NCBI GenBank assembly: GCA_965249725.1
Contig: CBDFMQ010000002.1
Location: 1,504,001 to 1,568,000, forward strand
Length of the DNA stretch: 64,000 nt
Direction: 5' to 3'
From: Longimicrobiales bacterium
GTDB taxonomy: Bacteria; Gemmatimonadota; Gemmatimonadetes; Longimicrobiales; Gaopeijiaceae
Below are positions 26,106 to 44,179 of this stretch, in pieces. Position numbers and translations under genes: made by a program. The notes below the pieces were generated by a model. That model did not search any database, was not told the origin of the DNA, and saw only the letters and a program-made list of their open reading frames with translations. The first letter of the stretch is position 1, and each line of letters opens with the position of its first letter.

Positions 26106-26110
26106 GCGGT

Positions 26111-27481: not shown

Positions 27482-27533
27482 GGTTGTAGAACCCCTACAC
27501 GGATCGTTCAGCGGACCGGCTGAGGATTGCGCG

Positions 27534-27633: not shown

Positions 27634-27643
27634 AGCCCATGAT

Positions 27644-28033
27644 TTATCGAATTGGACGAACATGCCGTTCGATCCATTCCTGGAACTCCTCCCGGGTTCT
27701 CTGGCCTGCGGCCACCGCGAGAATCTCTGCTTCGGCTTCGTCGACTTCCGCGGTGATTTCGAAGCCATTCAGCATGAGAACTGCCTCCGCTGCAGCGTGG
27801 CCAATTCTCTTGTTCCCGTCGATGAAGGGGTGATTCATGATCAGGGAGAAGCCCAAAGCGGCTGCCTTGGAAGAAAGGCTCGGGTACAGATCTTCGCCGC
27901 CGAACGTCTGCCGGGATTGGCCAAGTGCGGACTCCAGCATACCGAGATCCCGCAAGCCGTCAGAGCCCCCAGATTCTGCGATGATGAGACCGTGAAGCTT
28001 GAGGACCTCAGCCAAACTGAGGTAGCGCGTCAC
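27644..28033 (-). CDS. Doc (death-on-curing)/Fic family toxin, cassette 3
   Basis: HPFIDGNKRIG motif; GLRDLGMLESAL. Confidence 0.9.
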   Translation of the reverse strand: MTRYLSLAEVLKLHGLIIAESGGSDGLRDLGMLESALGQSRQTFGGEDLYPSLSSKAAALGFSLIMNHPFIDGNKRIGHAAAEAVLMLNGFEITAEVDEAEAEILAVAAGQRTREEFQEWIERHVRPIR

Positions 28034-28224
28034 CCGAGGCGCTCGTAGAGCTCCCGGTTCTTCTCCAGAATCTTGGACGCCACACGGTCGAAGTCCGCCT
28101 CCGGCTGGGCGACAAGTTCGCGGACAGCCGCCTCGGCTAGAGACTCGGCCGGAACGTTGAGTCGTCCCGCGATCTCAGCGAGTCGCCGCTGCTGGGCTTC
28201 GGAAAGTTCTATGGCGAGTTTCAT
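28030..28224 (-). CDS. Putative antitoxin (RHH-like), cassette 3
   Basis: 64 aa ending ILEKNRELYERLG; 4-bp overlap with the toxin; GGAGG RBS. Confidence 0.8.
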   Translation of the reverse strand: MKLAIELSEAQQRRLAEIAGRLNVPAESLAEAAVRELVAQPEADFDRVASKILEKNRELYERLG

Positions 28225-28282
28225 GATTCCTCCCTTCCCCACAAAGCTACCCAGGTTCGACAGGTACGACCAATGGAGGGCT

Positions 28283-28382
28283 ACATAACGGATTGCGATT
28301 CTGCTGCGCGACCAAGATGTGGACCGCAAGCGAAGCGCGCGAGCCGAATGTCTACCGCGACTGCAGCAATCGCTTGTTAGGC
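28283..28382 (-). repeat. Integron attC site (100 bp)
   Basis: GCCTAAC-aagcg-ATTGCTGC...GCAGAAT-cgcaatcc-GTTATGT. Confidence 0.9.
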
Positions 28383-28414
28383 TGCTGGCCCAGGTGTTTG
28401 GGGCTAGTCAAAGC

Positions 28415-28906
28415 CTAGGGCTGGAGTTGTGCTAGGAAGGTCGCGGAATCGAAGAGGATCCACTCCTCGGCAATCTTTCCGCCCTCGATGCGAAGAATGA
28501 GCATTTCACTGACGTGGACCGTCCGCCCGGTCGCCCCAATTCCCGCGAAGTCTCCGGTGTGCTGCAGCGTGATGTCTACCAATAGGGCGATTCGGTCGCC
28601 TTCCGAAACCGATTCCCGTATGACATGGCGTATGTCGGAGAACCCCGTGAAGAATGGCAGTAGGCTCTCACGGTAGGCTGCGAATTCTATCACCTCCGAC
28701 CCCCCGGCCTCGTGGCTGACGAAGCTAGCGGTCAACCATTGGTCTACCACCTCAAGAGATGGATCGGCATCAAACTCCTCGAAGTATCGCTCGATTAGAG
28801 CCCGGTGTTCCTCCGCATCGCTGTGGGTCGTCTCGTCGGTCTGCGGTTGGCAGGCGGAGAGAATGGCGGCAAGAACAAGGGTCGGACCGACGAAGCCTCG
28901 GGGCAT
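28415..28906 (-). CDS. Integron cassette 2: SnoaL-like ester cyclase lipoprotein
   Basis: LSAC lipobox; EGDRIA...HTGDFAGIGATGR...GKIAEEW. Confidence 0.85.
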   Translation of the reverse strand: MPRGFVGPTLVLAAILSACQPQTDETTHSDAEEHRALIERYFEEFDADPSLEVVDQWLTASFVSHEAGGSEVIEFAAYRESLLPFFTGFSDIRHVIRESVSEGDRIALLVDITLQHTGDFAGIGATGRTVHVSEMLILRIEGGKIAEEWILFDSATFLAQLQP

Positions 28907-28953
28907 TTGGAATAGTCCCTCCGTAAGAGGTACATCACTTGTGCTCTGCAGCA

Positions 28954-29053
28954 GCCTAACGGACTGCGATTCTGCTGCGCGTCTAAGATGGTGACCGCAA
29001 GCGAAGCGCGCGAGCTAGCTGGCTACCGCGACCGCAGCAATCGCTTGTTAGAG
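28954..29053 (-). repeat. Integron attC site (100 bp)
   Basis: CTCTAAC-aagcg-ATTGCTGC...GCAGAAT-cgcagtcc-GTTAGGC. Confidence 0.9.
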
Positions 29054-29092
29054 CGCACCCCGCGCATTATGCAGACACGAGGCGCTCGTTGA

Positions 29093-29797
29093 TCAAGCGA
29101 ACGATGCGTTCGATGAGCCATTGCGTCGCCTGGAGTCGCCCCCCCCTTGTTCGAGTCGCATCCAACGCTCGGCAAGCATGTCCTCGAAGCTTGGACTGAG
29201 CAGCACGGCGTCCCACTCGGCTCCATGAGGTGAGGGTCCGAACGGAAGGGACCGAACGGATCCATCACGGAGGGTTCCGAAGGAACCGCGCCGGAGCCGG
29301 TCTACCCGTGGGATCCGGCCCTCCAGGAATGGTTGCATCCGTTGCTCCCAGGTGGCCCAAGCCCGCGCGTCGGCAGCCCGAAGCTGGTCCAGAAAGGCGG
29401 GGTAGCTCGCGAGGGCCAGCCGAAGGCTATCCGACTGAATCAGCTGTGTCTCGCCCGAGGAGATCAGATCATCAAGGACGGCTCGCGGGGGATCGAACTC
29501 GATCTGCTGCGACAAGCCGGAAGCCCACAGATACAACGAGTCCAGCGGTGCTCGCTCTGATCCTTGAGCCTGGTTGATGAGCGCCTCGGCCGAGTGGACG
29601 GCGTGCCCCCGCATTGGAGTGGCAGTCTGCTGAAGGGCAACTGTGAACTCCTGACGTAGGGACATCAAGTAGCTTCGCTCCCGATCAAGAGCCTGCGAGC
29701 CATCCCACCAAGCCTCGATACCAAACGCGAGGAGAATCGAGGCAACGATGACGATCCCCTCAACAGCGATTCGGCCCCAAGGGATGTTCTCGTTCAT
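29093..29797 (-). CDS. Integron cassette 1: DUF6090-like protein; possible G8 frameshift near the 3' end
   Basis: WGRIAVEGIVIVASILLAFGIEAWW; LISSGETQLIQS. Confidence 0.7.
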   Translation of the reverse strand: MNENIPWGRIAVEGIVIVASILLAFGIEAWWDGSQALDRERSYLMSLRQEFTVALQQTATPMRGHAVHSAEALINQAQGSERAPLDSLYLWASGLSQQIEFDPPRAVLDDLISSGETQLIQSDSLRLALASYPAFLDQLRAADARAWATWEQRMQPFLEGRIPRVDRLRRGSFGTLRDGSVRSLPFGPSPHGAEWDAVLLSPSFEDMLAERWMRLEQGGGDSRRRNGSSNASFA

Positions 29798-29819
29798 GCT
29801 ATCGGCCCGTGCGTGTGCG

Positions 29820-29855
29820 CTCTAACTCCTATTGTACTGCACTATTTCGCCCCCA
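29820..29855 (-). other. Probable attI (array entry site)
   Basis: Core GTTAGAG complementary to the R'' of cassette 1, preceded by non-attC sequence (gaaatagtgcagtacaatagga). Confidence 0.55.
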
Positions 29856-29860
29856 TCATC

Positions 29861-30558
29861 GATGGTGTCCCGCTGACAGTTGAAGGTGGTGGCTCCGGAG
29901 AGTCTCCTTGTTAGCCTGCCTTTCTCATTTCGGCAACCGGTTCATGGTCGTCGAGGTGGGCTTTGAGCATCCAGAGCTGGTCGAAGCCGATGATCCTCCG
30001 GTAGCTCTTCTCGGTCTCCACGAACGAGGCCGCGGCCCATCTGAGGGCCATCGCTCCGTTCTTCCAGTTGGTCACCCTGTGGGTCTTCTGTCTTACGCCC
30101 GAGTGGGTGCTGTCGATCAGGTTGGTCGAGCCCAGGCACTTCCTCAGCCGCGGCGGGAGGCCGAGCCGGTTGATCGTGAACATCTCGCTGAGGCCTTCGC
30201 GTAGGCTGGCCGAGGCCGAGGGGTGGTCGCGCTCGAGCCATCGGGCGAGCTGCTCGAGCTTCTGCTCGCCCTGCTTCGCGTCCAGCTTCATCGCCGCCCG
30301 GAACGCCGCCTTCACCTGAGGATGCTGATCCTTCGGCAGATGACCCAGCACGTTGCGGAGCTTGTGGTTGCGGCAGCGCTGGATGGGGTGACGTTGGCCG
30401 AACACCTTCTCGATCGCCTTCCTGAGCGCTTTCGAGCCGTCGATCACGAACAGCCGCCGCCTGCCCGGGTCCAGGCCGCGCTCGACCAGATCCTCTAGGA
30501 GCGCGCTGGTCACCTCGGCGTTCTCACTCGCTCCTTCCCTCACGCCCAGCACGTGCTT
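29861..30558 (-). mobile_element. Truncated IS256-family element (3' half of transposase plus one terminal IR)
   Basis: VLGVREGASEN...LFVIDGSKAL...QRCRNHKLRN...STNLIDS; terminus GATGGTGTCCCG..AGTTGAA; N-terminal half missing. Confidence 0.85.
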
Positions 30559-30559
30559 G

Positions 30560-30812
30560 GATAAGCTCGGGGGAAGGAAGCACGCCCGACCAGGTGGTGG
30601 TGGTTGAGGTCTTCTTCGCACCGGATCGGGTTCGCCGGCGTGAGTCTGTGAGCGTCGATACGTACTATCGCATCCAATACGCACTCCGGCCCCGTGCTGG
30701 CTGCGATACACTTGCTGTTCGTTTCACACCTCCCAACGGGATCACCCATGTAGAGAAGCTCGGCAAATGTGAAGATCACGTCGTGGACTACGTCATCCCC
30801 CCAGGCGAATAG
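30560..30812 (+). pseudogene. 5'-truncated paralog of the 30823-31596 gene
   Basis: VVVEVFFAPDRV...CDTLAVRF...LGKCEDHVVDYVIPPGE aligns with the neighbour's C-terminus. Confidence 0.65.
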
Positions 30813-30822
30813 GGGAGGAACC

Positions 30823-31596
30823 ATGTCTGCGACGAGTAAGACTCTGAGCCGTTTGCGGGTTATGCGTCTGTTCCTCGTTGTCATGCCGTCGCTCTGGGCG
30901 TGCAGCACGTGGGAGCCCATCTCTATCGAAACTCTCGGGCCTGAGCCTCACCCGTCTTCTGTCAGAGTCTACAGAGGTCCGCTGTACGAATCCCTCCACG
31001 ATGTGCATGTCTTCGCCGACACGCTTCTGGTCGGCGTCACGCGCACCGGAACGACAGTTTGGGTCGAGAGCATATCCCTCGATCAAGTCACGAACATCGA
31101 GCAATCCAAGGGTGTTGATCTCGGCAAGACCGTCCTTGCCGTTGGCGGCGGCGCGGTGATCGCAGCGGCGGCGGTGACCGTATATCCGGCAGTGGCGGTG
31201 GTCTGCGACGACGACCCCTTCGACTGTGACCGAGCCCCACCCCCTCGGAAGAAGAGTACTGCCGAAACCGTGTGGGACCTCGCTCGCGCAGACTGGGCAC
31301 CCCGTCGGGACACGACCCCACCACCACCGCCTCTGTTCGTGGGCGGCTGGGTCAGCGCGCCCGGTGATAACCCAGATCACAGGGTGATGGTCGAACTCTT
31401 CGACGCACCGGATCGAGTCCTCCACCGTGAGCGTGTTCGAGTCAACGGATCGTATCGTATCAACTACCCTCGCGGCTTGATGCATTGCGAGACCCTGGCT
31501 GTGCGCTTCACGACGCCCGACGGACTCACCCACCTCGGTGAGCTTGGCAGTTGTGGTCAGCATGTCGTTGATCTCGACATCCTCCCCGGCGAGTAG
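30823..31596 (+). CDS. Hypothetical lipoprotein
   Basis: GGAGG RBS, LWAC lipobox, Pro-rich linker, Cys-containing C-terminal domain. Confidence 0.6.
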   Translation: MSATSKTLSRLRVMRLFLVVMPSLWACSTWEPISIETLGPEPHPSSVRVYRGPLYESLHDVHVFADTLLVGVTRTGTTVWVESISLDQVTNIEQSKGVDLGKTVLAVGGGAVIAAAAVTVYPAVAVVCDDDPFDCDRAPPPRKKSTAETVWDLARADWAPRRDTTPPPPPLFVGGWVSAPGDNPDHRVMVELFDAPDRVLHRERVRVNGSYRINYPRGLMHCETLAVRFTTPDGLTHLGELGSCGQHVVDLDILPGE

Positions 31597-31729
31597 AGGG
31601 AGACCATGTCTACCACCAGCAACGGCTTCCTGAGCCAGTTCGGTCTCCTGACGATTGTAGCGTCTCCGCTGATCTCCTTGTGGTGGCTGGAGGCGTGCGT
31701 CGACCCTGGTACGACTTCGTATCGCTGCG

Positions 31730-32127
31730 ACTAAGCACAGCACCCCTTCTCCGGGACCAGCACCCCGCCCGCTCTCCACGCCAGCGACCGTGGTCATCGC
31801 TGGGGGTTCCCCGCTCGCATCCACCAGCACATGCCCAACCGGCTGCCTGAGCAACTCAAGCCTTAGATCCTGCAGAAACAGCATACGTGCATCATCAGCC
31901 ATCCCTTCCAGCACCTGCACATGTTCGGGTGACACCCGCACCGTTACCTGGAGGAAGAGGTGGTTGTAGTCGGCCTTCTTGAGAGCCACCAGCGTAGAGA
32001 ACGTCTGCCCCGTGACAGAGAGCGCCCACTCGTACGGAACGTCTTCCTGGAGGTCGAGTTCCTCGTACGAGAGTTCGAGACCCGTCAGCCAATCTTGAAC
32101 GGTCTCTTTATCGATCTTGCCCGCCAT
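31730..32127 (-). pseudogene. DUF2299-like protein, 3' end apparently disrupted
   Basis: VQDWL...VRVSPEH...FLQDLRLELL; the ORF then runs antisense through the neighbouring gene. Confidence 0.4.
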
Positions 32128-32757
32128 GTACCCCTTGGGTTGTCATTCTTGGCTGTTGGAACAAGGTATCGACTGGGGGGAGCCAAAGGATAAGGCCCGC
32201 CATCCCAATGCCGCAACCATCCCAAAATGGTCCCATCCTGACATTCTCCCGCCGGTCCGTCCTACCCAGATTATCGGTCATGGGTATGTACGACATGATG
32301 ATGGACGGCGCGGTGGGCTGGAGGCCACGGTACGACAGCCTCACGCCCACCCAAGAGCCCATCACCGGACCGCGGCTCACTGTCCAGTGCACCTATCCCG
32401 GTACGAGCCTAGCCCCAACCGTGATCACATTCGGACTCTCGCCGCGCTACGGCTATTCGACTGCTCGGGAGGCACATGAGCTATTTCCTCAGATTAGTAC
32501 GCGAGCAGAAGGAATTCGAGGTCGATACAGATCGGGCAGGCAGGCTTCCGATCCCGTTCGTTAGCGGGACCGTCAAGAGCGTGCATTCTTCGATTTCCCC
32601 CTGAGGGCCCTTCGACCCCATCTCGGTTTCGCCATCTTTTGGACATGCGCCGTGCTTTCTGGTTGTTCGTCCTGCTCGTTTGCTACTATCTCTTCGTCGG
32701 GTGATGGCCGCGTGTGATCGCCATGTGCGGCACCGCCTCTCAACATCGTTCTCAAAC

Positions 32758-33111
32758 TCAAGCACCCCGCCGTCTCTGAAGAAAATCCCGTACATCGTTC
32801 TCCGGTAAGCTCGGGCCCCATCCGTTCGTCCGCTTAACAGGCAGATCACCCCGACGGATACGGGGTCGCCCTCTCTCACCAGCGTTCGGGATCGTGCCCG
32901 CGGCCACCATCTTGCGCAGATGGTCTATCGAGTAGTTGGACTCGAGTGCGGCCTCCACGAGTGTCAGTGTCTCGTCTTGGTCGTCCCTCAACGCCTCGTC
33001 CACCTCAACGGCCAATCGGCGAATCAGCTTGCCAGTGACCTCATGCCCACACCGTTCCACTGTCTCGGCTTCGTTACGCCACCGGGTGAGTAGTTCCTGC
33101 ATCGCGTTCAT
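32758..33111 (-). CDS. Excisionase-like HTH protein
   Basis: LTLVEAALESNYSIDHLRKMVAAGTIPNAG...RIRRGDL (MerR/Xis-type winged HTH). Confidence 0.65.
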   Translation of the reverse strand: MNAMQELLTRWRNEAETVERCGHEVTGKLIRRLAVEVDEALRDDQDETLTLVEAALESNYSIDHLRKMVAAGTIPNAGERGRPRIRRGDLPVKRTNGWGPSLPENDVRDFLQRRRGA

Positions 33112-33271
33112 TTCGAGATGCCTCGACCAGGCTTTTCGGTGCCCCGAATAGCCCTGTCACATGCTGTGACGGCAGGAGGTTGGGGCTGTAAGTCGTTGTC
33201 CCATATGGCCGACACTACCCAATGCATCCCGCGTGCATCCGAAACCGCCCTCGAATCGCCATTTCGCCGCA

Positions 33272-34915
33272 TTAGAAGGGGTACCTTCGCTGGAGGCGTT
33301 GTTGGCGTGCATGGCGCTCAAATAGGCGCTCCAAGCCGTAGTCCGTATTCCGCTCCCGCTTCTTCAATTTCTCGGGTCTCTTGAAAGCGGGGCGAGAGCG
33401 AACCCAGTTCCAGAAAACCGCGGCGTCGCCCTTGTCTGGGCTGCGCCCCAAACGCTCACGGATCTTTTCCTTCGGCTCGACAAGGATCTTGCCGTTGCGG
33501 GTAAGCCAGGTGGGGGTCGTGAGGTCGTCGAAGAGCTCTCGATCGTCGGGAAGGGCGATGTGACCACGCTGAAGATCCGTGCGTAGCTTCCAGTACATCT
33601 GAGCACGCAGGTTCGCGAACTGCTCGTCAGAGTACACAGCTCTTCCCGTCCTCGCCCGTGCCTCACTGTCCAGACCGCCGGTGGGTTTCGTCCCCGCGTT
33701 GAGGCTTCGCACGTAAGAGCCCATCTGCTTCAGGGCTCCGACTGCCCCAGCTCCTACGCCGACACTATCCACCCCCACCCGCCTTGGGTCGATGCCGTCG
33801 GCCTGGATCAGCGCTCCTACATCGATACCGAGTTGAACTGGATCGGGACACGCGAAGGAGCGGACCTCCAACAAGCAGGCTCCCTTCCCTTGGGCGATCG
33901 CCGCCTTGTCGCCCGCCTCGCTGGCCGCCACATCCACACCAAGAGCCATCACCCCCTGACGGAATGTTGGATCTGCATAGCGTGTGGCAGCCTCTTCACA
34001 CCACTCGAGATTGATGAGTGCGTCCTCGGCTTCTGCCGGAGAGATACCACGTATCCGAGAGCGGTAAAGGCGGCTGTCCTCGCCATATTTCCGCGCCCTC
34101 TTGTGAACCGATTCAAGTGAGACCGCACCAGGTACGATGTCCGCGTCGTCACAAACAACGTTCGGGTGGTCGAGGCCGGATATGCGCACATGCTCAACGT
34201 CTGGAGACGTGCAGAAGCGGTGTAGCTCGTCGTGCTGGCTGTCCGGGTTCCCTACGCAGATGCGGAGGTTGTGAGGGCCTGTGGACGTGTTCTCTAACGC
34301 CGTCATGACCGCCGGCGCGAGACCCGGCATCTCCTCAACGATGAGGAGCATGTGCTCAGCGTGGGCGCCCTGAGCTCGTGTAGCCGACTGCTCTCCAGAC
34401 CCAACACCGACAGCGTATCCCCACGCGCCCCACTGGTCTGATTTCGGAATCATGCGTAACCGGAGATCGGTCAGTTCAGCCTGTGGGAAGTGCGGCTTGA
34501 ACGCCGGCCACAGCTTCCGCATCTCGGCCCACATGAAGAGCCGAAGCTGATCCTCCTTTGGGGCATACGAGAACACGCGAGCATCGGGCCAGCAGGCGAC
34601 GAACCAGAAGGTCAGACACGCGAGCATAAAGCTCTTGCCGGCACCTGTCGCGGACTCGACACCTACGTCTCCGCCCAGGGCGAGTGCGTCGGCCATCCGC
34701 ATCAGCGGCTCGACAGTGCCGTCCCACTTGTGGTCGCGGTATCCCGTGTTGATCGACCACCGCAACGTGCGTTCATCGACGCCTAGGACATCGACGATCC
34801 AGCCGATTGGCTTCTGCTGGTAATCGCTGTGAACTGTGGTGGCATTGCCTTCCTTCTTGAGGCGTATCGCCCGCAGCACCGTCCTGGCCTGACCAGCATC
34901 GCGGATCATTGCCAC
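33272..34915 (-). CDS. terL: Phage terminase large subunit
   Basis: Walker A SATGAGKS, Walker B LLIVEE, coupling motif VGNP, nuclease LGVDVA, VGVDSVGVG, RSPDKGDA. Confidence 0.88.
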   Translation of the reverse strand: MAMIRDAGQARTVLRAIRLKKEGNATTVHSDYQQKPIGWIVDVLGVDERTLRWSINTGYRDHKWDGTVEPLMRMADALALGGDVGVESATGAGKSFMLACLTFWFVACWPDARVFSYAPKEDQLRLFMWAEMRKLWPAFKPHFPQAELTDLRLRMIPKSDQWGAWGYAVGVGSGEQSATRAQGAHAEHMLLIVEEMPGLAPAVMTALENTSTGPHNLRICVGNPDSQHDELHRFCTSPDVEHVRISGLDHPNVVCDDADIVPGAVSLESVHKRARKYGEDSRLYRSRIRGISPAEAEDALINLEWCEEAATRYADPTFRQGVMALGVDVAASEAGDKAAIAQGKGACLLEVRSFACPDPVQLGIDVGALIQADGIDPRRVGVDSVGVGAGAVGALKQMGSYVRSLNAGTKPTGGLDSEARARTGRAVYSDEQFANLRAQMYWKLRTDLQRGHIALPDDRELFDDLTTPTWLTRNGKILVEPKEKIRERLGRSPDKGDAAVFWNWVRSRPAFKRPEKLKKRERNTDYGLERLFERHARQQRLQRRYPF

Positions 34916-35400
34916 ACCTGCTGCTTCAGAGCGTCCATCAACTCGTCATCACCAAGCGCCTCGAGTTCCTTCATCTTCGAGACAGGCAGAGACGCCAACC
35001 GTTCCAAGACATCGACCTTCAACTCAAGGCGATCCTTGAACATCCCGAGATGTTGGCCGAGGTGACGCAGTGCCTGGTTCGCCACAGCACCGTCGTATCG
35101 ATACTCGCCTGTGGGAGTGCCCTGACGGTCCGTCACGGGCTTCGCCTGCATCGCCCGCCCAACGTTCTCCACGAGCTTGGTAATCACCCAGTCAGCCGTG
35201 ATTTCTGTTCGCTCGACGCGCTCCTGTAACGCCTTATCAATTTGGGCGGCTACCTTAGCGTTCCTTAACAGCCTGTGACCCGCGACCTCGGCCCCGTTCG
35301 GGCTGTACCCGGCGCGACGTGCTGCACCCGTAGCGTTCAAGTCCACCAGGTACTCGTGGACGAACGCCTGCTGCTTCGGGGTGAGTCTGGGGGTGTTCAC
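34906..35400 (-). CDS. terS: Phage terminase small subunit (Terminase_2-like)
   Basis: LTPKQQAFVHEYLVDLNATGAARRAGYS...ALRHLGQHLGMF. Confidence 0.92.
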   Translation of the reverse strand: MNTPRLTPKQQAFVHEYLVDLNATGAARRAGYSPNGAEVAGHRLLRNAKVAAQIDKALQERVERTEITADWVITKLVENVGRAMQAKPVTDRQGTPTGEYRYDGAVANQALRHLGQHLGMFKDRLELKVDVLERLASLPVSKMKELEALGDDELMDALKQQVWQ

Positions 35401-35439
35401 CGGTGAGCCCCTCCCTGCACTTCCTTCGGGTCATCAAGG

Positions 35440-35730
35440 TCACCCCAATAGGGAGCGGGGAACTTCCTCGCATCTGACTCCTTGCAGCGCCGGAAGTTCT
35501 CCAGCGACTGCTGCAGCCACTCGATGACTCTCGAATAGGTCTTCCGGGTAGAGCCACACCGCCCCCCCCGGCTCCAAGTTGTCCAGGTCTCGGGTACTGT
35601 CGAACTCTTCCAGCAACAGCTTTGGCGGCTCATCTAGGTTGCCGGGGTCAACCTGAAACAGCATCAGAAGCCGGTCGTGACTGAGTTCGAGGTTGTCCAA
35701 CCAATCAGGGGCCGTGGGTTCGGGTCTCAT
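35440..35730 (-). CDS. Hypothetical protein
   Basis: Translationally coupled (ATGA overlap) within the rep-ter operon. Confidence 0.45.
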   Translation of the reverse strand: MRPEPTAPDWLDNLELSHDRLLMLFQVDPGNLDEPPKLLLEEFDSTRDLDNLEPGGAVWLYPEDLFESHRVAAAVAGELPALQGVRCEEVPRSLLG

Positions 35731-36134
35731 TTGTGGGCTTCCTCAGGTTTGAGCGACTCCAGATTGTCCCTAAGGATCGCCTCGAGGACTGTTCTCAGGT
35801 CTTCGTAACCCGGCTGTGCCGTGATTCTGAGAAGCATCATCTGGGTGTCACTGTTCGTGATGCATAGATGATTCCAACAGAGCTTCTCCAGGTCCACTAG
35901 AGCCGCTAAGTGCAGTGGCCGTTGAAGGACCTCGTGCACATGCGGATGGTCCCGGACGAGCTGGTCGAGGATCTTGCCGTGCTTGGCCACCTGCTCGATG
36001 GCCGTGTACGCCACATCGTGATCCCAGGAAAGGCGGTCACAGATGTCCAGCACGGTCCGAGCGTGGGCGCGTTTGGAGACGGCCACCGCAAGTATCTCCA
36101 ACTCCAGCTTGTTCTTGTCCACGAATACCGTCAT
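35727..36134 (-). CDS. Hypothetical protein
   Basis: 4-bp overlaps with both neighbours. Confidence 0.55.
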   Translation of the reverse strand: MTVFVDKNKLELEILAVAVSKRAHARTVLDICDRLSWDHDVAYTAIEQVAKHGKILDQLVRDHPHVHEVLQRPLHLAALVDLEKLCWNHLCITNSDTQMMLLRITAQPGYEDLRTVLEAILRDNLESLKPEEAHK

Positions 36135-37045
36135 GGCCAGAGTGCTTCTTCGTCGGGTAAAGCCTGACGGATACGGTGGGTGCGGTAGTCGATCTCGATT
36201 GGGATGTCTCCCTCCCTACCGTGTCGGTTCTTAGCCACCAGCAGCCACGTTCGCGTGATGTGCTCATCGTCCTCACGCCTAGTGTGGTCGAGCAGCCAGC
36301 CGAAGTGGGCTTGCTTGGAGAGCAGCGGGCAGCTGTCGAGGCTCTCGATGGTTGGGCGCACCTTGGGTGCGGAGCTCTGCCGATTGAACTGGCTCGCCAC
36401 CACCACGAGGGAGCCGGTGGATTCCATGAAGCTCACGATGCCCCGCACAGCGTCTTTCAGGGCACTGAAGTGGCGGGTATCGCTCTCGAGACTCAGGAGC
36501 TGGAAATAGTCGATCAGGAAGACACGAACCCCGGAGCTCGAATTCATCGTCGCCATCCACCCGAGTGCGTCATCGACAGCCGTAAGAGACGCGGCCATCT
36601 GGTTGGTCAGCAGACGACCCCACGATCCTTCTCGGGTCTTCTGCTCGATCGTCTCACGGACGTGCTCGGCTTCCATTGAGTCGAAGTGACGGCCCGGAGA
36701 GAGATGCTTTGCGGGCACGTTGGTCAGGATCGACCAGATCGCGGGCGTCGCCTCCGCCGCGTCGATCTCGAGGCTCACGAGCCCAACGTTGACGGCCTGT
36801 TGGATGAAGTCGGCGGCGAGGTTCCAGAGCAATCGGGTCTTGTTGTTTCCGGTCTTCCCGCCCACAACGGCGAGCTTCCCGAGTGGAATCGCGCCCGGCG
36901 TCACGTGATATACCCACTCGCCCAACGACGGCACGCCCGTGCTGAGCACGTAGTCCTCGCCATGGCTCTTCCCCATTTCGGCCAACGCCTGCTGCTCTGC
37001 GGCCCAGACGCGGCTGACGACATCTACCGTGACCAGGTCGTTCAC
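36131..37045 (-). CDS. DnaB-like (SF4) helicase, C-terminal domain only
   Basis: GGKTGNNKT, VSLE, LIDYFQLL, ASQFNR, AKNRHG. Confidence 0.8.
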   Translation of the reverse strand: MNDLVTVDVVSRVWAAEQQALAEMGKSHGEDYVLSTGVPSLGEWVYHVTPGAIPLGKLAVVGGKTGNNKTRLLWNLAADFIQQAVNVGLVSLEIDAAEATPAIWSILTNVPAKHLSPGRHFDSMEAEHVRETIEQKTREGSWGRLLTNQMAASLTAVDDALGWMATMNSSSGVRVFLIDYFQLLSLESDTRHFSALKDAVRGIVSFMESTGSLVVVASQFNRQSSAPKVRPTIESLDSCPLLSKQAHFGWLLDHTRREDDEHITRTWLLVAKNRHGREGDIPIEIDYRTHRIRQALPDEEALWP

Positions 37046-37827
37046 TGGACAAGCTCCTGGGACTGCGATCGCCTGGCTGCCAGGTACTTGGCCTTGCCGG
37101 CGTCTAGCTTGGGGAATTCGATCTTCTTCGGCGGTAGCGAGCGAGCGCCTTCTGCCTCGTTGCAGTTTCGGATGATCCCGCGGGCGTAGTTCTCGTCCTT
37201 ACCCTCAGCGGCATACCCCTTCTCGACGTAGATGCGAAGACCGGCGACGACCTTCGGGATCTCATGGTTTGCCCACCACTCGAACTCTTGGAGGATGACG
37301 CTGTCGGCGATCCGGTTCGTCTGACGAGTTGAGCGAAACGCGGCGACCGCGGAGTCGACAACTGCGAGCTGTTCGGGGGAGTAGCGAGTACGGTTTTCGA
37401 GAATCTCTTCTTCGGGGGTCTTTTCCGTACTACCCGTACTCTCCTCTATAGGGGGTGTGGGGGAAAGTTCATGAGAATGAACCTCTTCATGTGCCTCTTT
37501 GGCTTGATGTTCACCCTCGTGAACCTCTTCCGGGGATAGCACCGCTCGAAGCTCCGGCGCTTTGGGTCCACGACGGATCACCTTGAGCCATCCCTTCCTT
37601 GCTAGGGACGCCCTCACCTGCTTCACATGACTCTCGGACCGCCGGAGCAGCGTCATCAGGTACTCCGTGTCGGCATAGCAGCCGCGGTCCGCACCCTCTA
37701 GACTCCGCACCATCATCCAGAACCTGAATTCAGCATCGGTGAGTTCTCCTGCTGCCGTTGCCCGGGTCGCATCGAAGAGCTCTCGAAGCGTCGTCCGTCC
37801 ATCCTGCTTTCCTTTCTTTGCCATCAT
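37042..37827 (-). CDS. Putative replication initiator (N-terminal winged HTH)
   Basis: GCYADTEYLMTLLRRSESHVKQVRASLARKGWL; internal short repeats; directly upstream of the helicase. Confidence 0.6.
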   Translation of the reverse strand: MMAKKGKQDGRTTLRELFDATRATAAGELTDAEFRFWMMVRSLEGADRGCYADTEYLMTLLRRSESHVKQVRASLARKGWLKVIRRGPKAPELRAVLSPEEVHEGEHQAKEAHEEVHSHELSPTPPIEESTGSTEKTPEEEILENRTRYSPEQLAVVDSAVAAFRSTRQTNRIADSVILQEFEWWANHEIPKVVAGLRIYVEKGYAAEGKDENYARGIIRNCNEAEGARSLPPKKIEFPKLDAGKAKYLAARRSQSQELVQ

Positions 37828-37897
37828 GCTCCCTCACGAGCGGTATATGTGTGCCCGGCCCGGTGGTGAGGCACCGAGGAGGTCGAGACCTCACCCG

Positions 37898-38095
37898 CTA
37901 GTGCGAGCCCGAGCTTGGTTTCTTGTTCTTCATGACTTCCATGAGCGGGCGACCTTCGTCGAGCCGTCTCTGTCGCTCGCACATCTGGAGCAGGTGTTTG
38001 TCGCACGCCGCCTTGTGCCGCACCCAGCGTTCCTTTTCCTGATCTCGCCCAGTCACGCAGTCGAGGTGCTCGTCACCCGGTCTTGGTGCCATCAC
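37898..38095 (-). CDS. Small hypothetical protein
   Basis: Co-oriented within the leftward operon. Confidence 0.35.
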   Translation of the reverse strand: MMAPRPGDEHLDCVTGRDQEKERWVRHKAACDKHLLQMCERQRRLDEGRPLMEVMKNKKPSSGSH

Positions 38096-38350
38096 CTACA
38101 CACCCACCGTCCCGCCATGTCGTGCCGGGTGGTTCCGGTCACGCCGGGCGCGGAATTGCCGCAGATCGCCCAGACGGTAAAGATTGCTGCGCCCATTCCA
38201 TCCGCACGGCTGAGGCCGATCCCTTCGTGCGTCACTGGCCCACTGCCTGAGCGTCTGTTGGCCCACTCGAAGAAACCGAGCCGCTTCGTTGGTCGTCACG
38301 ATGCGGCGCCCATCTGCGGATTCCAGTTCAATCGTCGTGTCTGCGCACAC
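38096..38350 (-). CDS. HTH DNA-binding protein (Xis/AlpA/MerR-like)
   Basis: VTTNEAARFLRVGQQTLRQWAS...LYRLGDLRQF. Confidence 0.7.
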   Translation of the reverse strand: MCADTTIELESADGRRIVTTNEAARFLRVGQQTLRQWASDARRDRPQPCGWNGRSNLYRLGDLRQFRARRDRNHPARHGGTVGV

Positions 38351-38513
38351 GCTTTGTCCCTCCGCTTCTTGTGCAGGCCACCGTCCTCATGTATATTTGA
38401 GAGCGTTAGCCGGAGTAGCCATTCATATTGGATACACCAATCTAAGTCGAAGACGGATGAGGGTGTTAGCGGCATCCGCACTTGGCCCACACAACGACCC
38501 GGAGGCAGCCAGC

Positions 38514-39629
38514 GTGGCTAACATCGAACGGATTCCCGCCAACAAGGACCAAGTGGTCAAGAAACGGCTGCGAGAGGTGAGGGAGAAGGAGGGGTGGGGT
38601 TTCCGAAAGACTAGGACGAAGGTGCTTGCTGTGCTCAAGCAGGTGGACCCCGAGGCCAAGCTTCACCCCCCGGATGTGAAGCGCTTCGAGGGGAGTGACG
38701 AGCGCAAGACGCGACCGCCAGTATGGTACGTGGAGGCGTTTGCCGAGGCCGCCGGAGTGCCCGTCAGTTACCTAATGGCCGACGACATCTCGCCTTGGTC
38801 CATCAAAGAGTTCGAGACCGTCTTTAGGGAGATCCAAAGGGACTACCGGAGTCGCCTCGCGCATCCCACCAGCACCAACGAAGAGCGAACAAGGGAGGAG
38901 CTCAGGGACAAGGTCGCGAAGACGCTTCTTCTCGCTTCGGGCATCCCGCTACCCCGCCAGAAGAACCCACTGGGACGCCATCGGGATGACGTTCTGGCTG
39001 AGATCTATGCGGATATGCAGGTGCTCTACTGGGAGGCATTTTGGGGCAGGGAGTTCACGGAGCACGAACAGTTCCTGGACGCTGCGATGCAACTCGGGCG
39101 GCTAATTCCCTCACCTGCAAAACTTCCAGAACAGGGCTTTCTGCCGCTCGAAGAGGTAAGCGAGGACCGACTCCGGCGATGGTGGGTGCTACAGGCCGAA
39201 GCCCTCCGTGTTCTGTTGCGGCCCGGCGAGTTTGAGAAGGAAAAGATGAACCTCGGTCGAGGTGGTGAGCTTGGCCCGCTCTCCTGGGCGGAGCTCATGA
39301 AGAACCGTAGCAAGCTGGCAATCCCATGGGACGACGAGAACGCGATTCGGGCCGCCGCGTCGCCAGCCAAGTCGGAAGAAGAACAGGAAGAAGAGGCCGC
39401 ACGTGCAAAGCGGGTCACCCAGAAGACGCGTAAAAGGGAAGAGGTCGCGCGAATCAAGTCGCCGGAGGATCGCAAGCGCGCGATGGATGAGGCCTACCAC
39501 GAAGGGGCGTTAGAGAAGAGGGAACGGTGGGCGAGGGAGCAGGACCAGATTCCGGGGGACTCGGCCATGAGTACAGCCGAGCCAATTGAAGAAACCGACG
39601 AGTCAGGAGAAGGAGGCGAAGATGCCTAA
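38514..39629 (+). CDS. XRE/CI-like repressor with a long C-terminal domain
   Basis: RLREVREKEGWG...PPVWYVEAFAEAAGVPVSYLM; GGAGG RBS; divergent from the HTH-rep operon. Confidence 0.6.
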   Translation: MANIERIPANKDQVVKKRLREVREKEGWGFRKTRTKVLAVLKQVDPEAKLHPPDVKRFEGSDERKTRPPVWYVEAFAEAAGVPVSYLMADDISPWSIKEFETVFREIQRDYRSRLAHPTSTNEERTREELRDKVAKTLLLASGIPLPRQKNPLGRHRDDVLAEIYADMQVLYWEAFWGREFTEHEQFLDAAMQLGRLIPSPAKLPEQGFLPLEEVSEDRLRRWWVLQAEALRVLLRPGEFEKEKMNLGRGGELGPLSWAELMKNRSKLAIPWDDENAIRAAASPAKSEEEQEEEAARAKRVTQKTRKREEVARIKSPEDRKRAMDEAYHEGALEKRERWAREQDQIPGDSAMSTAEPIEETDESGEGGEDA

Positions 39630-40833
39630 GAAGAAAGCCCACTGGTCGAAAATCATCGACGCAGACGGAATCAGCATTCGACTCTACGAGCGGCTGGGAG
39701 GCACAGCCGTCTACATGTCATTTAAGTGGGATGAAAAGAAGGTGCAGAGGAGCACGAAGCGCAGTGATAGACGGGAGGCGGGAGAGTACGCTCGCCGATT
39801 CGTCCACGGCCTAGTAGAAGATCGATTCCTGGGACGCGCTGGGCCGGTGACGTTGGCGCAGGTGTTCCGCGTCTATAGGACCCATCGCCTTCCCCTGCCG
39901 ACTGACTCGTGGCAGAAAGCCGCCGAGATGCGGCTCAGGCTCTTCGAGGTGGCGTGGGGCTCCAACCTCAGCGTCGATGACATCGGTCAGACACAAATCG
40001 ACTCTTTCGACCACCTCCGGCGCTCTGGCCAGTTGACGCCCGACCACAACCGTGCCCGTAAAGCAGTCCGAGCCGGAACAATAGACAGCGACCTTCAGTT
40101 CTTGAGCGCCGTGTTCAATTGGGCTCACAAGCACAAGGTCGATGGTCGGAGACTCTTGTCGGAAAACCCGCTCCGAGATGTCGAGTGGCCGAGGGAGGAG
40201 AACGTTCGCCGACCCATCGCCTCGCACGAGCGATTCATGAAGACGATGGGGCACGTGGATGCCATCGACTCCGGGGGCCGCCTACGTTGCATCCTGACGT
40301 TGGCCCGGCACACCGGGCGCCGAGAGAACGCCATCTGCCAACTACTCGCCAGTGACTTGCTCCGCACCGAAGCGGAAGTCGGAGCCGTGTTGAGTGCGCT
40401 CGGGCTCGATGAGCGCCAAGCTAAGCACTTCCCCCACGGAGGCATTCGGTGGAGGGCCGAGACGGATAAGACCGGACGCTATACAGTGACGCCGATCCGA
40501 CAGGACGTTCGTGAGGCGATGGACGCGTACCTGCGGCAAAACCCACGGGTAGGAGACGTGCCGCTCTTCCCCGCCCCGAAGGATGACAGCAAGGCCATCC
40601 GCCGGGACCTCGCCGCACGATGGCTCCTGAAGGCTGAGAAGCTCGCAGGGCTACCCAAGCTGGCCGGCGGCCAGTTCCATCCCTACCGGAGGCTGTGGGC
40701 TACGGAACGGAAGGATCTACCAGTCCAGGACGTGGCGGCTGCCGGTGGATGGAAGAGCATGGAGACCGTTCAACGCCTCTACCAGCAGGCGGACGGGGCA
40801 ACCACACTGGCGGCGGTGGAGGCCGGAGAGTGA
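39622..40833 (+). CDS. int: Tyrosine recombinase / integrase
   Basis: HTGRR (R), TDK (K), FHPYRR (HxxR), GGW, LYQQ (Y); adjacent to the tRNA att site. Confidence 0.92.
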   Translation: MPKKKAHWSKIIDADGISIRLYERLGGTAVYMSFKWDEKKVQRSTKRSDRREAGEYARRFVHGLVEDRFLGRAGPVTLAQVFRVYRTHRLPLPTDSWQKAAEMRLRLFEVAWGSNLSVDDIGQTQIDSFDHLRRSGQLTPDHNRARKAVRAGTIDSDLQFLSAVFNWAHKHKVDGRRLLSENPLRDVEWPREENVRRPIASHERFMKTMGHVDAIDSGGRLRCILTLARHTGRRENAICQLLASDLLRTEAEVGAVLSALGLDERQAKHFPHGGIRWRAETDKTGRYTVTPIRQDVREAMDAYLRQNPRVGDVPLFPAPKDDSKAIRRDLAARWLLKAEKLAGLPKLAGGQFHPYRRLWATERKDLPVQDVAAAGGWKSMETVQRLYQQADGATTLAAVEAGE

Positions 40834-40860
40834 CGCAGGGTCTCCTTTTCTTGTGTCCCG

Positions 40861-40885
40861 GTGGGATGCAAACGGGATGCAAAGC
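40861..40885 (+). repeat. Arm-type integrase-binding repeat (GGGATGCAAA x2)
   Basis: 24/25 identical to 18607-18631; lies between the int stop and the att core. Confidence 0.7.
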
Positions 40886-40954
40886 GAAAAAGAGGCGGAA
40901 CGTGAGATGGGACTACAAGCCCCAGAAGCCAGTTGCCTATTAGGCTTTCGCAAG

Positions 40955-41029
40955 TGGGCGGTGGCAGATTCGAACTGCCGACCTCCTGGGTGTAAACCAG
41001 GCGCTCTGAACCAACTGAGCTAACCGCCC
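40955..41029 (-). tRNA. tRNA-Val(TAC), CCA not encoded
   Basis: GGGCGGTTAGCTCAGTTGGTTCAGAGCGCCTGG-TTTACAC-CCAGGAGGTCGGCAGTTCGAATCTGCCACCGCCCA cloverleaf. Confidence 0.97.
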
Positions 41030-41348: not shown

Positions 41349-44179
41349 TCAACAGGGGTCGGAGAACACAAACACTCCTTTGGCTTGCAGAGCGGCCACG
41401 TCCGTGCAACTCACGCTCGTGCCACGAAGGTCAACGGTGTTCCCCGCTCCGAGCCCCGTGTTGTCGAGCAGTGGCTGAATGTCGGTGAGGCCGGCGTTGA
41501 ATTGGAGGCGGAGAAAAGTCAGGCTTGTGAGCCCGCTCAGCACGCTGACGTCGCTGATCAAGTTGCTGGGGAGGAAGAGGAGCGTCAGGCTCGTGAGCTC
41601 GCTCAGCGCGCCGAGGTCGCTGATCGTGTTGGCGGAGAGGAAGAGGAGCGTCAGGCTCGTGAGCTCGCTCACCGCGCCGAGGTCGCTGATCGTGTTGAAG
41701 CTGAGCCGCAGGTCCGTCAGGCTCGTGAGCTCGCTCAGCGCGCCGATGTCGGTGATCGTGTTGTTGGAGAGGCCGAGGTGTGTCAGGCCCGTGAGCTCGC
41801 TCAGCGCGCCGATGTCGGTGATCGTGTTGAAGCGGAGGCCAAGGAAGGTCAGGCTCGTGAGATTCTGGATCCCCACCAAGCTCACGATCCCAAGGGAGTA
41901 GGCATCCATAGCCGTCAGCCACGATATCCGGCTGCAGGTGAGATCGTCCAGCGGGCCGAGCGCGAGCGCCACCCTGATCGCCGCGTCCAGGTTGGTATCC
42001 TCGAACGTCGCGATGGCAGAGGCGGGGTGATCGCTGCAGAGGTCGCCGGGCAAAAGTTCCGTCGTCCCGATTACCTCGGGGAGCCTCACGAATACGATTG
42101 TCGTGACCGGATCCTCATCCACAACAACCACGGTCAGCGTGTTGCCGGAGATAGTGTACTGGAGATCCTCGTCGTCGCACCCCGGGTCACAGATGAAGAA
42201 GCGAGTGCCCATGACATACCACGTGCCGTCGTCGGTGCAGCTGGTCTCCTCGTCGCAAAACAATTCCTGCGTGTCGCCGGCAACGGACTCCAAGAACGTT
42301 CCGTCGCCCATCAAATTGATAATGAACTGGGTGCTCGTTCCAACGAGCAATTCCACGCCGTTCTGCAAGACACTTGTGGCCCTCCATAACCCGACTAGGC
42401 TAGGTCCAATAGCCACGACAGTGGCACTGCCCGAGTTGTTGCTCGGATCGTCCTCCTGGTGCTCCAGCACCGCAGCGGTTGCCGTGTTCGTGAGCGTCTC
42501 GCCGGCAAAGCCTTCAGCCACCACGGCCGTTATCGTGAGGCGGACCAGGGCCCCCGGGGCCAGGCTCGGGATCGTCCACTCGCCGGTGCTGGGATTGAAC
42601 GCTCCATCGGACGAACGAACTGGAGTCCCGGGGGCAGATGGTCGGTGACCACGATGTGGTCGGCCCGGTCGGGCCCGTGGTTCGTGACGGCGATCGTGAA
42701 CACGACCTCCTCCGCCTCATGGACTTCGACCTGGTCGGCCTCCTTGGTGACCGCGATGTCGGCGACCCGTCGGCCCACGTCCACGAGCGCGGACGCCACG
42801 TTGTTGGACGGATCGTCGGTCTGATCGGTCAGCTGGGCAGCCGATGCGACGTTCTCCAGGGTCTCGCCTCCGGTCCCGTCGGCCAACGTGGCGACGATGG
42901 TGAGCGTGGCGGACGCCCCCGGCGCGAGGCTTCCCACGTCCCAGGCGCCAACAGGGTCGACGCTCCCGCTGGACGGCGTCATGGTCTCGAAGAACATGCC
43001 GTAGGGCTCGGGGTCGTCCACCTTGACCCCGGTAGCCGTCGCCGGGCCGTTGTTGACCACCGTGACCGTGAAGGTCACCAGGTCCCCCTCCAGCGCCGTC
43101 GGCTTGTCCACAACCTTGGTCACCGCGATGTCGGCCGTCAGGAGCGAGACTTCGAAGTCCTGGCTGGTGGCCGGATTGAGGCCCTGGGCGGTAGCAAAGA
43201 GCCGGAACAACCCGGCATCGGGACTGACCAGACCCTCGAACGTGGCGAGGCCCGCCACGGCGTCGACCGTGGTGGTGCCGTTCAGCTCGGCGGCCTGCGG
43301 TGCACCGACTTCGCCTGGTGCGGCTGCGGCGGCCGCAGCCACCACCGCTGCGGCCCGATTCTGTAGCTCGAGCGTGATCGAGCCCGTGTAGCTTGCGACG
43401 CGATCGCCCCGGGCGTCCACCGCCTCGACGCTGGGAGCGGGCTCGAGAGGCTGGTCGACTTCCACGGCGCCGGGCTGGGTCACAAAAGCCAGAGCGATGA
43501 CTCGCGGCAACACCAACAGGCTGAGGCTGGCCGATTCGGTTCCAGCGAGCACGGTGATGTCGACCGGGCCGGGAAGGTGCGCCTGAAGGAAGCCCCCCTG
43601 GGTCACCGTAGCGATCGACGAATTCGAGCTGTCCCAAATCAGTGTCGGAGTGCCGGGCTCGCTCATCTTGACCTGGGCTTGCAGCTGGAGCCCGTCGCCT
43701 TCGGTTACGGGGCCGGCTTCGAGCAACGTGAGCGACGTCACGAAGTTGTTGCTCAAGGGCCCGTGCACGAGCTGAGCCTCCTGGACTTGAGTTTGCGCGG
43801 TGAGGACGAACTCGGCGGTGACGCCCGAAAACTCCACCGCCCCGACCGCATTGACGGCCTCGAATGTGAGGTAGATCGCCTCCTGAGTGGCTTCGAACTC
43901 GCAGGTGACGACCCACTCGGTCAGGGTTGGATCGACCGACTCGACACATACCGCGAGGACGGCATCGTCGGACGCCCGCTTGACCGTCACCCGGATCTCC
44001 TCGACGGCGGCAGCCTGGTCGGTTGTGGTTCCCTGGGGGAAGACGGTCCGCAGACCTACCCCCACTGTCCCAGGGGAGGCTTGCCCGACTGGAGACGACC
44101 CGTCTACGCAGGAGGAGACCAGCAAGAGAGAAACAAGACCACAAAGGCCCAGAAGCCGTCGAGACACCATGGAGACCAT
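41349..44179 (-). pseudogene. Large lipoprotein with Ig-like, two DUF11, lipocalin-like and internalin-type LRR domains; frameshift near 42610
   Basis: LVSSC lipobox; ADIAVTK..VTFTVTVVNNGP repeats; second frame continues FNPSTGEWTIPSLAPG; 22-aa LxxLxxLxLxxNxIxD repeats. Confidence 0.75.

Follow-up and report, generated by a model that had tools for sequence, protein, structure and literature searches.

How a mobile element might use a complete phage packaging motor when it carries no shell to fill is the question raised by one locus of a Longimicrobiales bacterium (contig CBDFMQ010000002.1, positions 1,504,001 to 1,568,000; this whole stretch of 64,000 nucleotides is called the window below, and coordinates count from its first letter). 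Known satellites redirect the motor of a helper phage through the small terminase subunit or an adaptor, or bring a motor together with their own capsid and portal, and a terminase without head genes is usually taken as decay. The module at 32758-40952 encodes an integrase, a regulator, two helix-turn-helix (HTH) proteins, Rep, a DnaB-like helicase, the small terminase TerS and a two-domain large terminase, TerL. We favor the reading that the region is a tRNA-Val-integrated, helper-dependent mobile island similar to the phage-inducible chromosomal islands (PICIs), with a whole terminase and without head, tail or lysis genes, and assign this reading a probability of about 0.55. It draws on intact att cores, arms and integrase, a compact operon, the integrity of TerL, selection on TerS and TerL, and a clade of TerL relatives without head genes in any scanned context. 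The features concerned are the following (ORF, open reading frame; aa, amino acids; E-values of profile matches in brackets).

18434-18477: attL core, repeating the 3´ part of tRNA-Val; forms a direct repeat of 44 nt with 40953-40996, one mismatch
18579-18631, plus strand: P´ arm, 53-nt direct repeat 74% identical to 40833-40885, with two tandem GGGATGCAAA at 18609-18629, exact motif matches
32758-33111, minus strand: HTH_17 gene (AlpA/excisionase-like) downstream of terL (HTH_17 6.2e-4), 68% identical and colinear in the short metagenome contig L056
33112-33271, minus strand: spacer between terL and the HTH gene, 160 nt, with an inverted GGATGCA pair at 33213-33238; 76% nucleotide identity to L056
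33272-34915, minus strand: terL, large terminase (ATPase and nuclease), 547 aa (phrog_2 2.2e-24)
34906-35400, minus strand: terS, small terminase (Terminase_2 1.1e-28; phrog_51 8.8e-34), 87% identical in the short metagenome contig L055
35440-35730, minus strand: hypothetical protein, 96 aa, no Pfam or PHROG family match
35727-36134, minus strand: hypothetical protein, 135 aa, no Pfam or PHROG family match
36131-37045, minus strand: DnaB-like helicase, C-terminal ATPase domain only (DnaB_C 6.3e-15; phrog_19 1.6e-18)
37042-37827, minus strand: Rep, replication initiator/loader-like (HTH_36 4.7e-6; phrog_186, DnaD-like loader, 7.5e-6; phrog_270 1.4e-4)
37898-38095, minus strand: small ORF of the leftward operon
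38096-38350, minus strand: HTH_17 protein (Xis/Cro-like), start of the leftward operon (HTH_17 1e-5; phrog_66 1.9e-5)
38289-39629, plus strand: putative regulator (likely start ~38457), divergent from the leftward operon, without Pfam or PHROG match
39586-40833, plus strand: tyrosine integrase (Phage_integrase 1.3e-8; phrog_1 7.6e-25)
40833-40885, plus strand: P arm, with two tandem GGGATGCAAA at 40863-40883
40953-40996, minus strand: attR core, inside tRNA-Val(tac), 3´ part of the tRNA
40954-41029, minus strand: tRNA-Val(tac), found by ARAGORN and by the Rfam tRNA model (72.6 bits); sole tRNA gene of the window

The ends of the island have the marks of integration into a tRNA gene by a tyrosine recombinase: the 3´ part of the tRNA is repeated at both ends, the integrase gene adjoins the intact tRNA, and the 53-nt arm-type repeats sit just internal to each 44-nt core, at the left end in the order expected for the attL of this integrase. 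Since these cores stand at 18434-18477 and 40953-40996, the element between the att sites measures 22.5 kb and not 7.7 kb. The earlier note on this DNA had described a compact element of ~7.7 kb; the module at 32758-40952 is instead the integrase-proximal third of a 22.5-kb composite, the remaining 14 kb being cargo with kinases, integron-type cassettes, a toxin-antitoxin pair and an insertion sequence (IS) fragment. No third att core was found inside the island (best local alignment score 24, versus 88 for a full match), and the element may extend over 22.5 kb or over about 8 kb only. The G+C content is slightly lower within the island (0.58-0.64) than outside (0.62-0.67). A weaker, inverted pair of the arm motif (GGATGCA, 33213-33238) lies 34 nt beyond the terL stop, matching the arm-like repeat previously placed about 30 bp from the end of terL, and is kept in a metagenomic relative; the count of the arm motif is compatible with chance (5 matches against 2.7 expected, a number reached in 15 of 100 shuffles). 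The tRNA was the sole match of an Rfam scan of 17000-42000, and promoter and terminator scans gave scores under the shuffle means.

Within the module, the gene order and identities first read from the letters were confirmed by the Pfam and PHROG scans. The genes of the leftward operon overlap by 4-10 nt, and terS lies directly upstream of terL with a 10-nt overlap. These scans found no primase domain in the module, the replication genes being Rep (HTH_36) and the DnaB_C helicase. The ORF that had been called a repressor is in place upstream of int; it has no family match, and its label as a putative regulator or repressor comes from its position and an XRE-like N-terminus judged by eye.

TerS matched the Terminase_2 profile at 101 bits (cut-off 26.1) over profile positions 1-138 of 141. 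TerL had no Pfam match, and a search of the PDB by sequence gave chance matches alone (E above 0.6). In an alignment of 12 sequences, made up of the window TerL and 11 relatives, the ATPase residues K94 (Walker A), E195 (Walker B) and G222-N223-P224 (coupling motif) are invariant, as are the acidic residues D328, D383 and D497 of the nuclease. The best match to the AlphaFold model of TerL (pLDDT 83.3) is full-length Sf6 gp2 (4ife; E 2.6e-19, 456 columns), with other large terminases next, and the model also matches the E217 and Sf6 nuclease domains (TM-score 0.67-0.70 by target). The Walker A and B, coupling and nuclease Asp motifs reported in the earlier note are thus borne out by alignment and fold, and TerL is predicted to be a complete two-domain ATPase-nuclease terminase that keeps its catalytic residues. 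It is single-copy in the window's genome. A basic C-terminal tail ending in YPF is common to the TerLs of the window, L056 and a same-family genome, G452, and is lacking from phage TerLs.

We compared nonsynonymous and synonymous substitution rates (dN/dS) between the terminase genes and their relatives. The ratio for TerL was 0.04-0.07 against L055 (301 codons) and 0.09-0.14 against L056 (208 codons), and that for TerS was 0.07-0.08 (L055); against G452 and two further genomes, G619 and G537, ratios were 0.17-0.31, with dS saturated. These values indicate strong purifying selection on both subunits, and the relaxed selection on TerL that had been named as a sign against a satellite was not seen against the two nearest relatives (0.04-0.14).

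The Pfam and PHROG profiles gave no match to portal, capsid, protease, tail or lysis families in 18478-33272 or elsewhere in the island (32 island ORFs scanned with Pfam, 16 of these also with PHROGs). Remnants of head genes were sought by a tblastn search of the island (E ≤0.05) with 251 phage proteins. These came from 12 loci, of which seven belong to the TerL clade, three span the genome's two prophage regions and two are same-phylum prophages. TerLs were the only ones to match, apart from one 15-residue chance match. The DNA beyond terL codes for the HTH protein, cargo and IS/cassette DNA. Profiles and tblastn therefore agree with the absence of portal, protease, capsid, tail and lysis genes between the att sites that had been claimed at the outset, and neither Pfam, PHROG nor the 251 phage proteins revealed a portal fragment beyond terL.

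The nearest relatives are L055, whose TerL is 88% identical over residues 1-301 and has the 87% identical TerS upstream, and L056, whose TerL is 78% identical over residues 338-547. The terS-terL-spacer-HTH block is colinear in these two contigs at 77-79% nucleotide identity, and the outer flanks differ: the gene upstream of terS in L055 is not that of the window, and in L056 colinearity takes in the terL end, the spacer and the HTH gene (77% nucleotide identity), after which comes a 94-aa ORF foreign to the window. A scan of genome contigs with TerL returned five loci, the best on a 2.9-kb contig. Within the same bacterial family, a TerL match at E ≤1e-20 was present in 13 of 314 genomes, that of the window (G000) included, and a search at order level also yielded G736, which belongs to a second family; the closer TerLs of family and order are those of G452 (63% identity), G619 (62%), G736 (56%) and G537 (54%). 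TerL is absent from both other species of the genus (2/2). A scan of viral contigs found one relative of TerS, at 32% identity, and none of the window helicase or of the HTH_17 gene after terL.

The layout recurs in G619, in the order tRNA-Ser(tga), integrase, 282-aa ORF, primase/helicase, 85-aa ORF, TerS and TerL. Beyond TerL lie a 172-aa ORF and an HTH repressor on the other strand, followed by a SusC-like TonB receptor gene (PDB 8aa4, 3.2e-33). The G619 element occupies about 7.1 kb between tRNA-Ser and this host gene and leaves no room for head genes. Right of the tRNA no att repeat of ≥11 nt was found, and no clean empty site was found in the genus of G619, where the SusC ortholog flanks are non-syntenic and the tRNA-Ser copies mostly lie at contig ends. 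G619 supplies the recurrence at another tRNA, without portal or capsid, that had been proposed as a check, on a different backbone. In G452, a 205-aa ORF, TerS, TerL and an 87-aa ORF lie between the genes for ribosomal protein L25 and a Ser/Thr kinase, and in G537 (contig of 6.9 kb) a 106-aa ORF and a sigma-factor-like gene come after terL. Portal, capsid, protease and tail families had no match at E ≤1e-4 in 43 neighbouring ORFs of G452, G619 and G537, and tblastn of the window integrase, Rep and helicase found no match in these three loci. The terminase pair is the part common to the clade loci; their integration and replication backbones differ. The scanned nearest relatives (54-78% identity) hence show no portal after terL and are not the full prophages that would have spoken for a phage.

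Portal-bearing complete phages were met at TerL identities of ≤47% only. The 37-47% tier consists of another genome, G067, which has a P22-like portal one gene after terL, and of 14 distinct viral or metagenome loci, with a portal family match near terL in 12 and a head-morphogenesis gene in a 13th. In a 21-row tree from a quick search, the window, L055, L056, G452, G537 and G619 form one clade (Shimodaira-Hasegawa-like approximate likelihood ratio, SH-aLRT, 98), whose sister rows are phage TerLs with portals (37-47% identity) or short contigs. All five members with scanned context (the window, L056, G452, G619 and G537) are portal-less, and the portal/no-portal label needs one change on this tree. 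A 39-row tree, in which L045 was counted as portal-bearing from its near-identity to L044, put the window in a 100/100 clade with phage TerLs, and integrase- or primase-linked TerLs from the same phylum in two other clades. In this same-phylum tier (~25-35% identity), 12 of 23 loci have a tyrosine integrase and/or primase/helicase without a portal, three have a portal and eight have neither, as counted in context scans, one of which did not take in ORFs shorter than ~230 aa or another 18 ORFs (10 with ≥770 aa). These TerLs suggest further capsid-less terminase islands in the phylum. The 12 portal-less loci are L029-L031, L092, L094, L097, L099, L100 and L102-L105, several of them at tRNA-Pro, tRNA-Leu or tRNA-Val.

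The fewest events are needed if the head genes were lost once, long ago, and an intact, selected terminase was then retained for a long time amid changing backbones, a pattern which implies that the pair works without a capsid of its own. A helper phage, resident or infecting, would lift repression. Int, probably aided by either HTH_17 protein, would then excise a 22.5-kb circle via the 44-nt cores, and Rep and the DnaB-like helicase would replicate it. TerS would bind an island pac site and recruit TerL, which would cut the concatemer, dock on the portal of helper procapsids and fill them by headful, the basic YPF-ending tail of TerL being a candidate portal-docking part. Island DNA with its kinases, cassettes and toxin-antitoxin pair would leave in helper virions. 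Two resident prophage regions with full head modules are candidate helpers, one on contig C1 (~492-520 kb; L086, L087), with HNH, phrog_9 TerL, portal, major head and tail genes, and one on C2 (~80-92 kb; L088), with TerS, phrog_2 TerL, portal, a MuF-like protein and a major head protein. The separate satellite class proposed in the earlier note is partly supported, in that the closest homologous loci with scanned context are not full prophages, no portal fragment was found beyond terL and selection on TerL is not relaxed; the compact 7.7-kb unit does not stand, the att-bounded unit being a 22.5-kb composite. More tentatively, and with some doubt on our part, TerS-TerL may be a long-lived hijacking cassette, headless down to ~52% identity through changed integrases, replication modules, tRNA targets and cargo, and one of at least three independent headless TerL island lineages in the phylum.

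Several points weigh against the satellite reading. Helper use, excision, replication, induction and packaging are inferred from the genes. The nearest contexts are tiny, with L056 showing 0.85 kb beyond terL and L055 nothing downstream, and the lack of a portal was judged by PHROG and Pfam profiles, from which divergent proteins can escape; these profiles found the G067 portal weakly (6.8e-12) and the G067 capsid not at all. The tree rows were labelled by context by the analyst before the changes were counted; what the clustering shows is therefore a trait that goes with the tree, and it gives no probability. As judged from the trees, a phage origin is certain, because the window TerL clade is nested among complete-phage TerLs (portal in 12 of the 14 loci and in G067), and the late head-gene loss is not datable. 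G736 has a TerS-like ORF and TerL beside a 465-aa neighbour without a PDB match or usable Atlas match, and is not classifiable. G452 carries TerS-TerL beside host rpL25 with no integrase within ~18 kb, as would suit a remnant or domestication of the pair. The island itself is rearranged and composite, with an IS fragment and a frameshifted kinase, and the sister species G456 has similar cassettes and a P arm with no module. A second helicase copy in the window's genome (G000 C3:833414-834325, 85% identical) sits in a clearly decayed module, so decay of such modules does occur in this genome.

A defective prophage would account for part of this: a tRNA-Val phage would have lost its portal-to-lysis region through IS and cassette rearrangement, unrelated DNA would have filled in, and TerS and TerL would be intact by recency or chance. 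The TerL clade does sit among complete-phage TerLs, the IS fragment, attC cassettes and frameshifted kinase occupy the place expected for late genes, the decayed helicase module adjoins a further IS and attC array of the same genome, and turnover at the tRNA-Val locus is heavy in sister species. However, decay needs a deletion edge just past terL in several lineages with different downstream genes (window/L056, G452, G619, G537), or else one old loss and long retention, which implies function. Catalytic residues all kept across 52-63% sequence divergence, low dN/dS, the lack of head-gene pseudogene remnants in the tblastn search and the tidy 7.1-kb element of G619 between tRNA and host gene also speak against it, and we consider a defective prophage unlikely.

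Domestication of the pair for another role, for example defence by blocking the packaging of invading phages, or packaging of host DNA into resident heads in the manner of a gene transfer agent, would suit the G452 pair, intact with no integrase or replication genes nearby. It would likewise suit a pair that rides different backbones (Rep and a DnaB-like helicase in the window, a primase-helicase in G619) and a cargo with a toxin-antitoxin pair. In the window and G619, by contrast, the pair ends an integrase-regulator-replication operon at a tRNA, which is the layout of self-packaging elements, and no defence family was seen beside the pair, with no search aimed at such families. In the available part of PMC10085698, helper interference and self-packaging are not exclusive in known satellites, and we regard domestication as quite improbable. 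An account to which we give very little weight takes the int-to-HTH module (~8.2 kb) as the real element and the 14 kb leftward as an older island or chromosomal cassette array. It would explain the homologous cassettes without the module at the same locus of G456, the arm-like motif pair just past terL, and an HTH_17 gene whose paralogs normally precede an integrase. Yet there is no third att core inside (24 vs 88), the left end bears a core and an arm repeat 74% identical to the right one in attL order, and G456 lacks an attL and therefore offers no proof of an independent left-hand island. This account concerns boundaries only and is compatible with any other reading.

We compared the island with described systems, as given in the available parts of the sources cited. 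PICIs, both of the Staphylococcus aureus pathogenicity island (SaPI) type and of the Gram-negative type, share with it an integrase at one end, an adjoining regulation module, a replication module, site-specific integration, terS at the operon's distal end, followed by accessory genes, and the lack of capsid, tail and lysis genes (PMC10085698). They typically encode no other phage component than terS, and terL is listed as a marker of capsid-forming PICIs (cf-PICIs) (PMC10085698). The island differs in having TerL too, in having Rep and a DnaB-like helicase instead of a primase-replicase, and in its 22.5 kb between att sites against a PICI median of 9.5 kb (PMC10085698). The host, a high-GC environmental bacterium, is unlike PICI hosts, and induction of the island by a helper is a prediction. 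The SatelliteFinder model of PICIs combines an integrase and adjacent AlpA/MerR/Stl-type regulator, a primase-replicase and terS (PMC10085698); the island has the integrase and HTH_17 proteins, and its complete terL departs from a PICI with terS and no other virion or packaging component. The cf-PICIs likewise bring TerS and TerL and thus package their own DNA independently of the helper terminase, but their genes also include those for major capsid protein, protease, portal and head-tail connectors, and tails are all that they borrow (10.1101/2022.09.08.507074; PMC10085698). With no head, tail or lysis gene found, the island is neither a cf-PICI nor a complete prophage.

The Streptomyces satellites MulchRoom and MiniFlayer have small and large terminase subunits as the island does, but also portal, major capsid, scaffold and adaptor genes (PMC10690885). 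PICI-like tycheposons and marine VEIMEs (integrative mobile elements that are packaged in virions) resemble it in tRNA integration, tyrosine recombinase, replication module, cargo, partial tRNA repeats at the ends and a phage packaging gene for capsid hijacking (10.1101/2020.12.28.424599; PMC9618062). In contrast to the island, tycheposons carry terS or a capsid gene, and VEIMEs carry terS homologs and 'motor-like ATPases', the large terminase being presumed helper-supplied; the available text of these two sources describes no class with TerS and TerL and without a capsid (10.1101/2020.12.28.424599; PMC9618062). The complete temperate phages with the nearest TerLs (the G067 prophage L026 and the viral contigs L035 and L037; 43-46% identical to the window) have a portal 0.4-2.7 kb from terL, unlike the window, and L035 also a capsid protease and a major head gene. 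Upstream of its terL, L026 resembles the window in having genes for a helicase and a replication initiator; no other protein of L026, L035 or L037 matches the window. A satellite with TerS and TerL and without head genes was not found described in the full-text literature searched, supplements excluded.

For a satellite, a whole motor with no shell means that TerL must fit the portal of another phage. The satellite reading, if true, bears on the specificity of terminase-portal recognition, on phage-borne gene transfer in poorly studied environmental phyla, and on how prophage finders score terminase loci without head genes; kinases, integron cassettes and a toxin-antitoxin pair would also travel with the island. 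Should the hijacking-cassette proposal hold as well, docking a foreign motor on a helper portal would be a common, overlooked strategy of satellites. The presence of the island and of two candidate helper prophages in a single genome offers a concrete test system.

The HTH_17 gene after terL (dN/dS 0.16-0.26 against L056) has three paralogs, each directly upstream of an integrase, two in G000 and one in a further genome, G280. The paralog-integrase pairs are at G000 C3:1703798-1705308 (by tRNA-Ile), G000 C3:2736149-2737665 and G280 L029 17769-19583 (tRNA-Val). By this placement the family looks like an AlpA/Xis-like partner of this integrase family. We rejected the idea that the gene starts a second, inverted, integrase-bearing element, given that its linkage to terL is ancestral (colinear in L056) and that no integrase remnant lies leftward. 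A 54-aa ORF in the terL-HTH spacer was also rejected; with a dN/dS of 0.6-0.8 it is probably no gene.

In the sister species G457, the stretch just left of attL and the core are found at tRNA-Val itself (88% over 78 nt), with a small duplicated scar, a 98% identical IS fragment nearby and no module. At the G456 locus, attC cassettes that include homologs of cassette ORFs of the window take up ~12 kb after the left flank; next come a full Mutator transposase, a P arm and tRNA-Val. This arm has two GGGATGCAA units beside tRNA-Val (L136 reverse strand ~14810-15010), with the transposase in the place of the integrase; no integrase, TerL or attL was found there. We read the G456 arm as the footprint of a lost related element, and the tRNA-Val locus as a hot spot whose cargo history is partly separate from that of the module. 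On the other side of the tRNA, 41349-44179 of the window holds genes for surface proteins with leucine-rich repeats (LRR) and DUF11/Big_2, and tandem repeats of 66 nt lie at 41496-41927; this segment is absent at the same place in G457 and forms a second variable segment. The decayed copy in G000 (C3:833414-834717; L089 7414-8717) comprises the helicase and a paralog of the 135-aa hypothetical protein (43%), without terS, terL, rep or int, and adjoins a transposase, an antitoxin and another attC array.

Assembled contigs from sequencing runs were compared over 17400-37399, a stretch that does not include attR. The module, the HTH gene (down to 32358) and pieces of the cargo recur nearly unchanged in run contigs from several other studies. 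Those of runs X8, X10 and X16 leave 30740-32073 uncovered, and loose ends at 18435 and 18468 resemble other tRNA-Val contexts. The cargo contains the following.

18742-25979, minus strand: cargo genes for a 241-aa membrane-protein family member, kinases, a DUF4440 protein and a lipocalin-like protein
19464-22115, minus strand: Ser/Thr kinase-PD40 (Pkinase matches of both kinases 4.5e-48 and 2e-45; PD40 2.3e-22)
22115-24776, minus strand: second Ser/Thr kinase-PD40 (Pfam), split by a frameshift into two overlapping ORFs
26084-29797, minus strand: integron-type cassette array, attC-like sites at 26701-26802, 27529-27630, 28278-28379 and 28949-29050, and a partial one at 26084-26101
27644-28033, minus strand: Doc toxin with an upstream small ORF (Fic/DOC 1.4e-17)
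28415-28906, minus strand: SnoaL protein (SnoaL 7.9e-23)
29911-30711, minus strand: Mutator-family transposase fragment, an IS remnant (Transposase_mut 1.1e-21, profile positions 194-376 only)
30769-31596, plus strand: lipoprotein-like ORF, lipobox-like N-terminus judged by eye
~31812-32127, minus strand: DUF2299 gene fragment (DUF2299 2.3e-7 on residues 10-105 of a 444-aa ORF)

The contigs of X8 and X10 lack one base at 23017, near the kinase frameshift, so that the split reflects either a difference between strains or an error in the window's assembly. The four 102-nt attC-like repeats are spaced at 671-828 nt, each after a single ORF, and have the R´´/L´´/L´/R´ layout and a DNA hairpin of -28.3 kcal/mol (z -3.05). 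Sites of this type have 28 copies in the genome, clustered, including at G000 C3 ~824-829, 969-974 and 1022-1027 kb; the clusters look like cassette arrays without an adjacent integron integrase, for which no targeted search was made (the CALIN type, clusters of attC sites lacking integron integrases), one of them inside the island. The IS fragment (window 29861-30558) has its 98% identical copy beside tRNA-Val in G457 (L135 7450-8147) between flanks of only ~80% identity, and its summed depth in metagenome contigs is very high, both of which point to a recently active, widespread IS.

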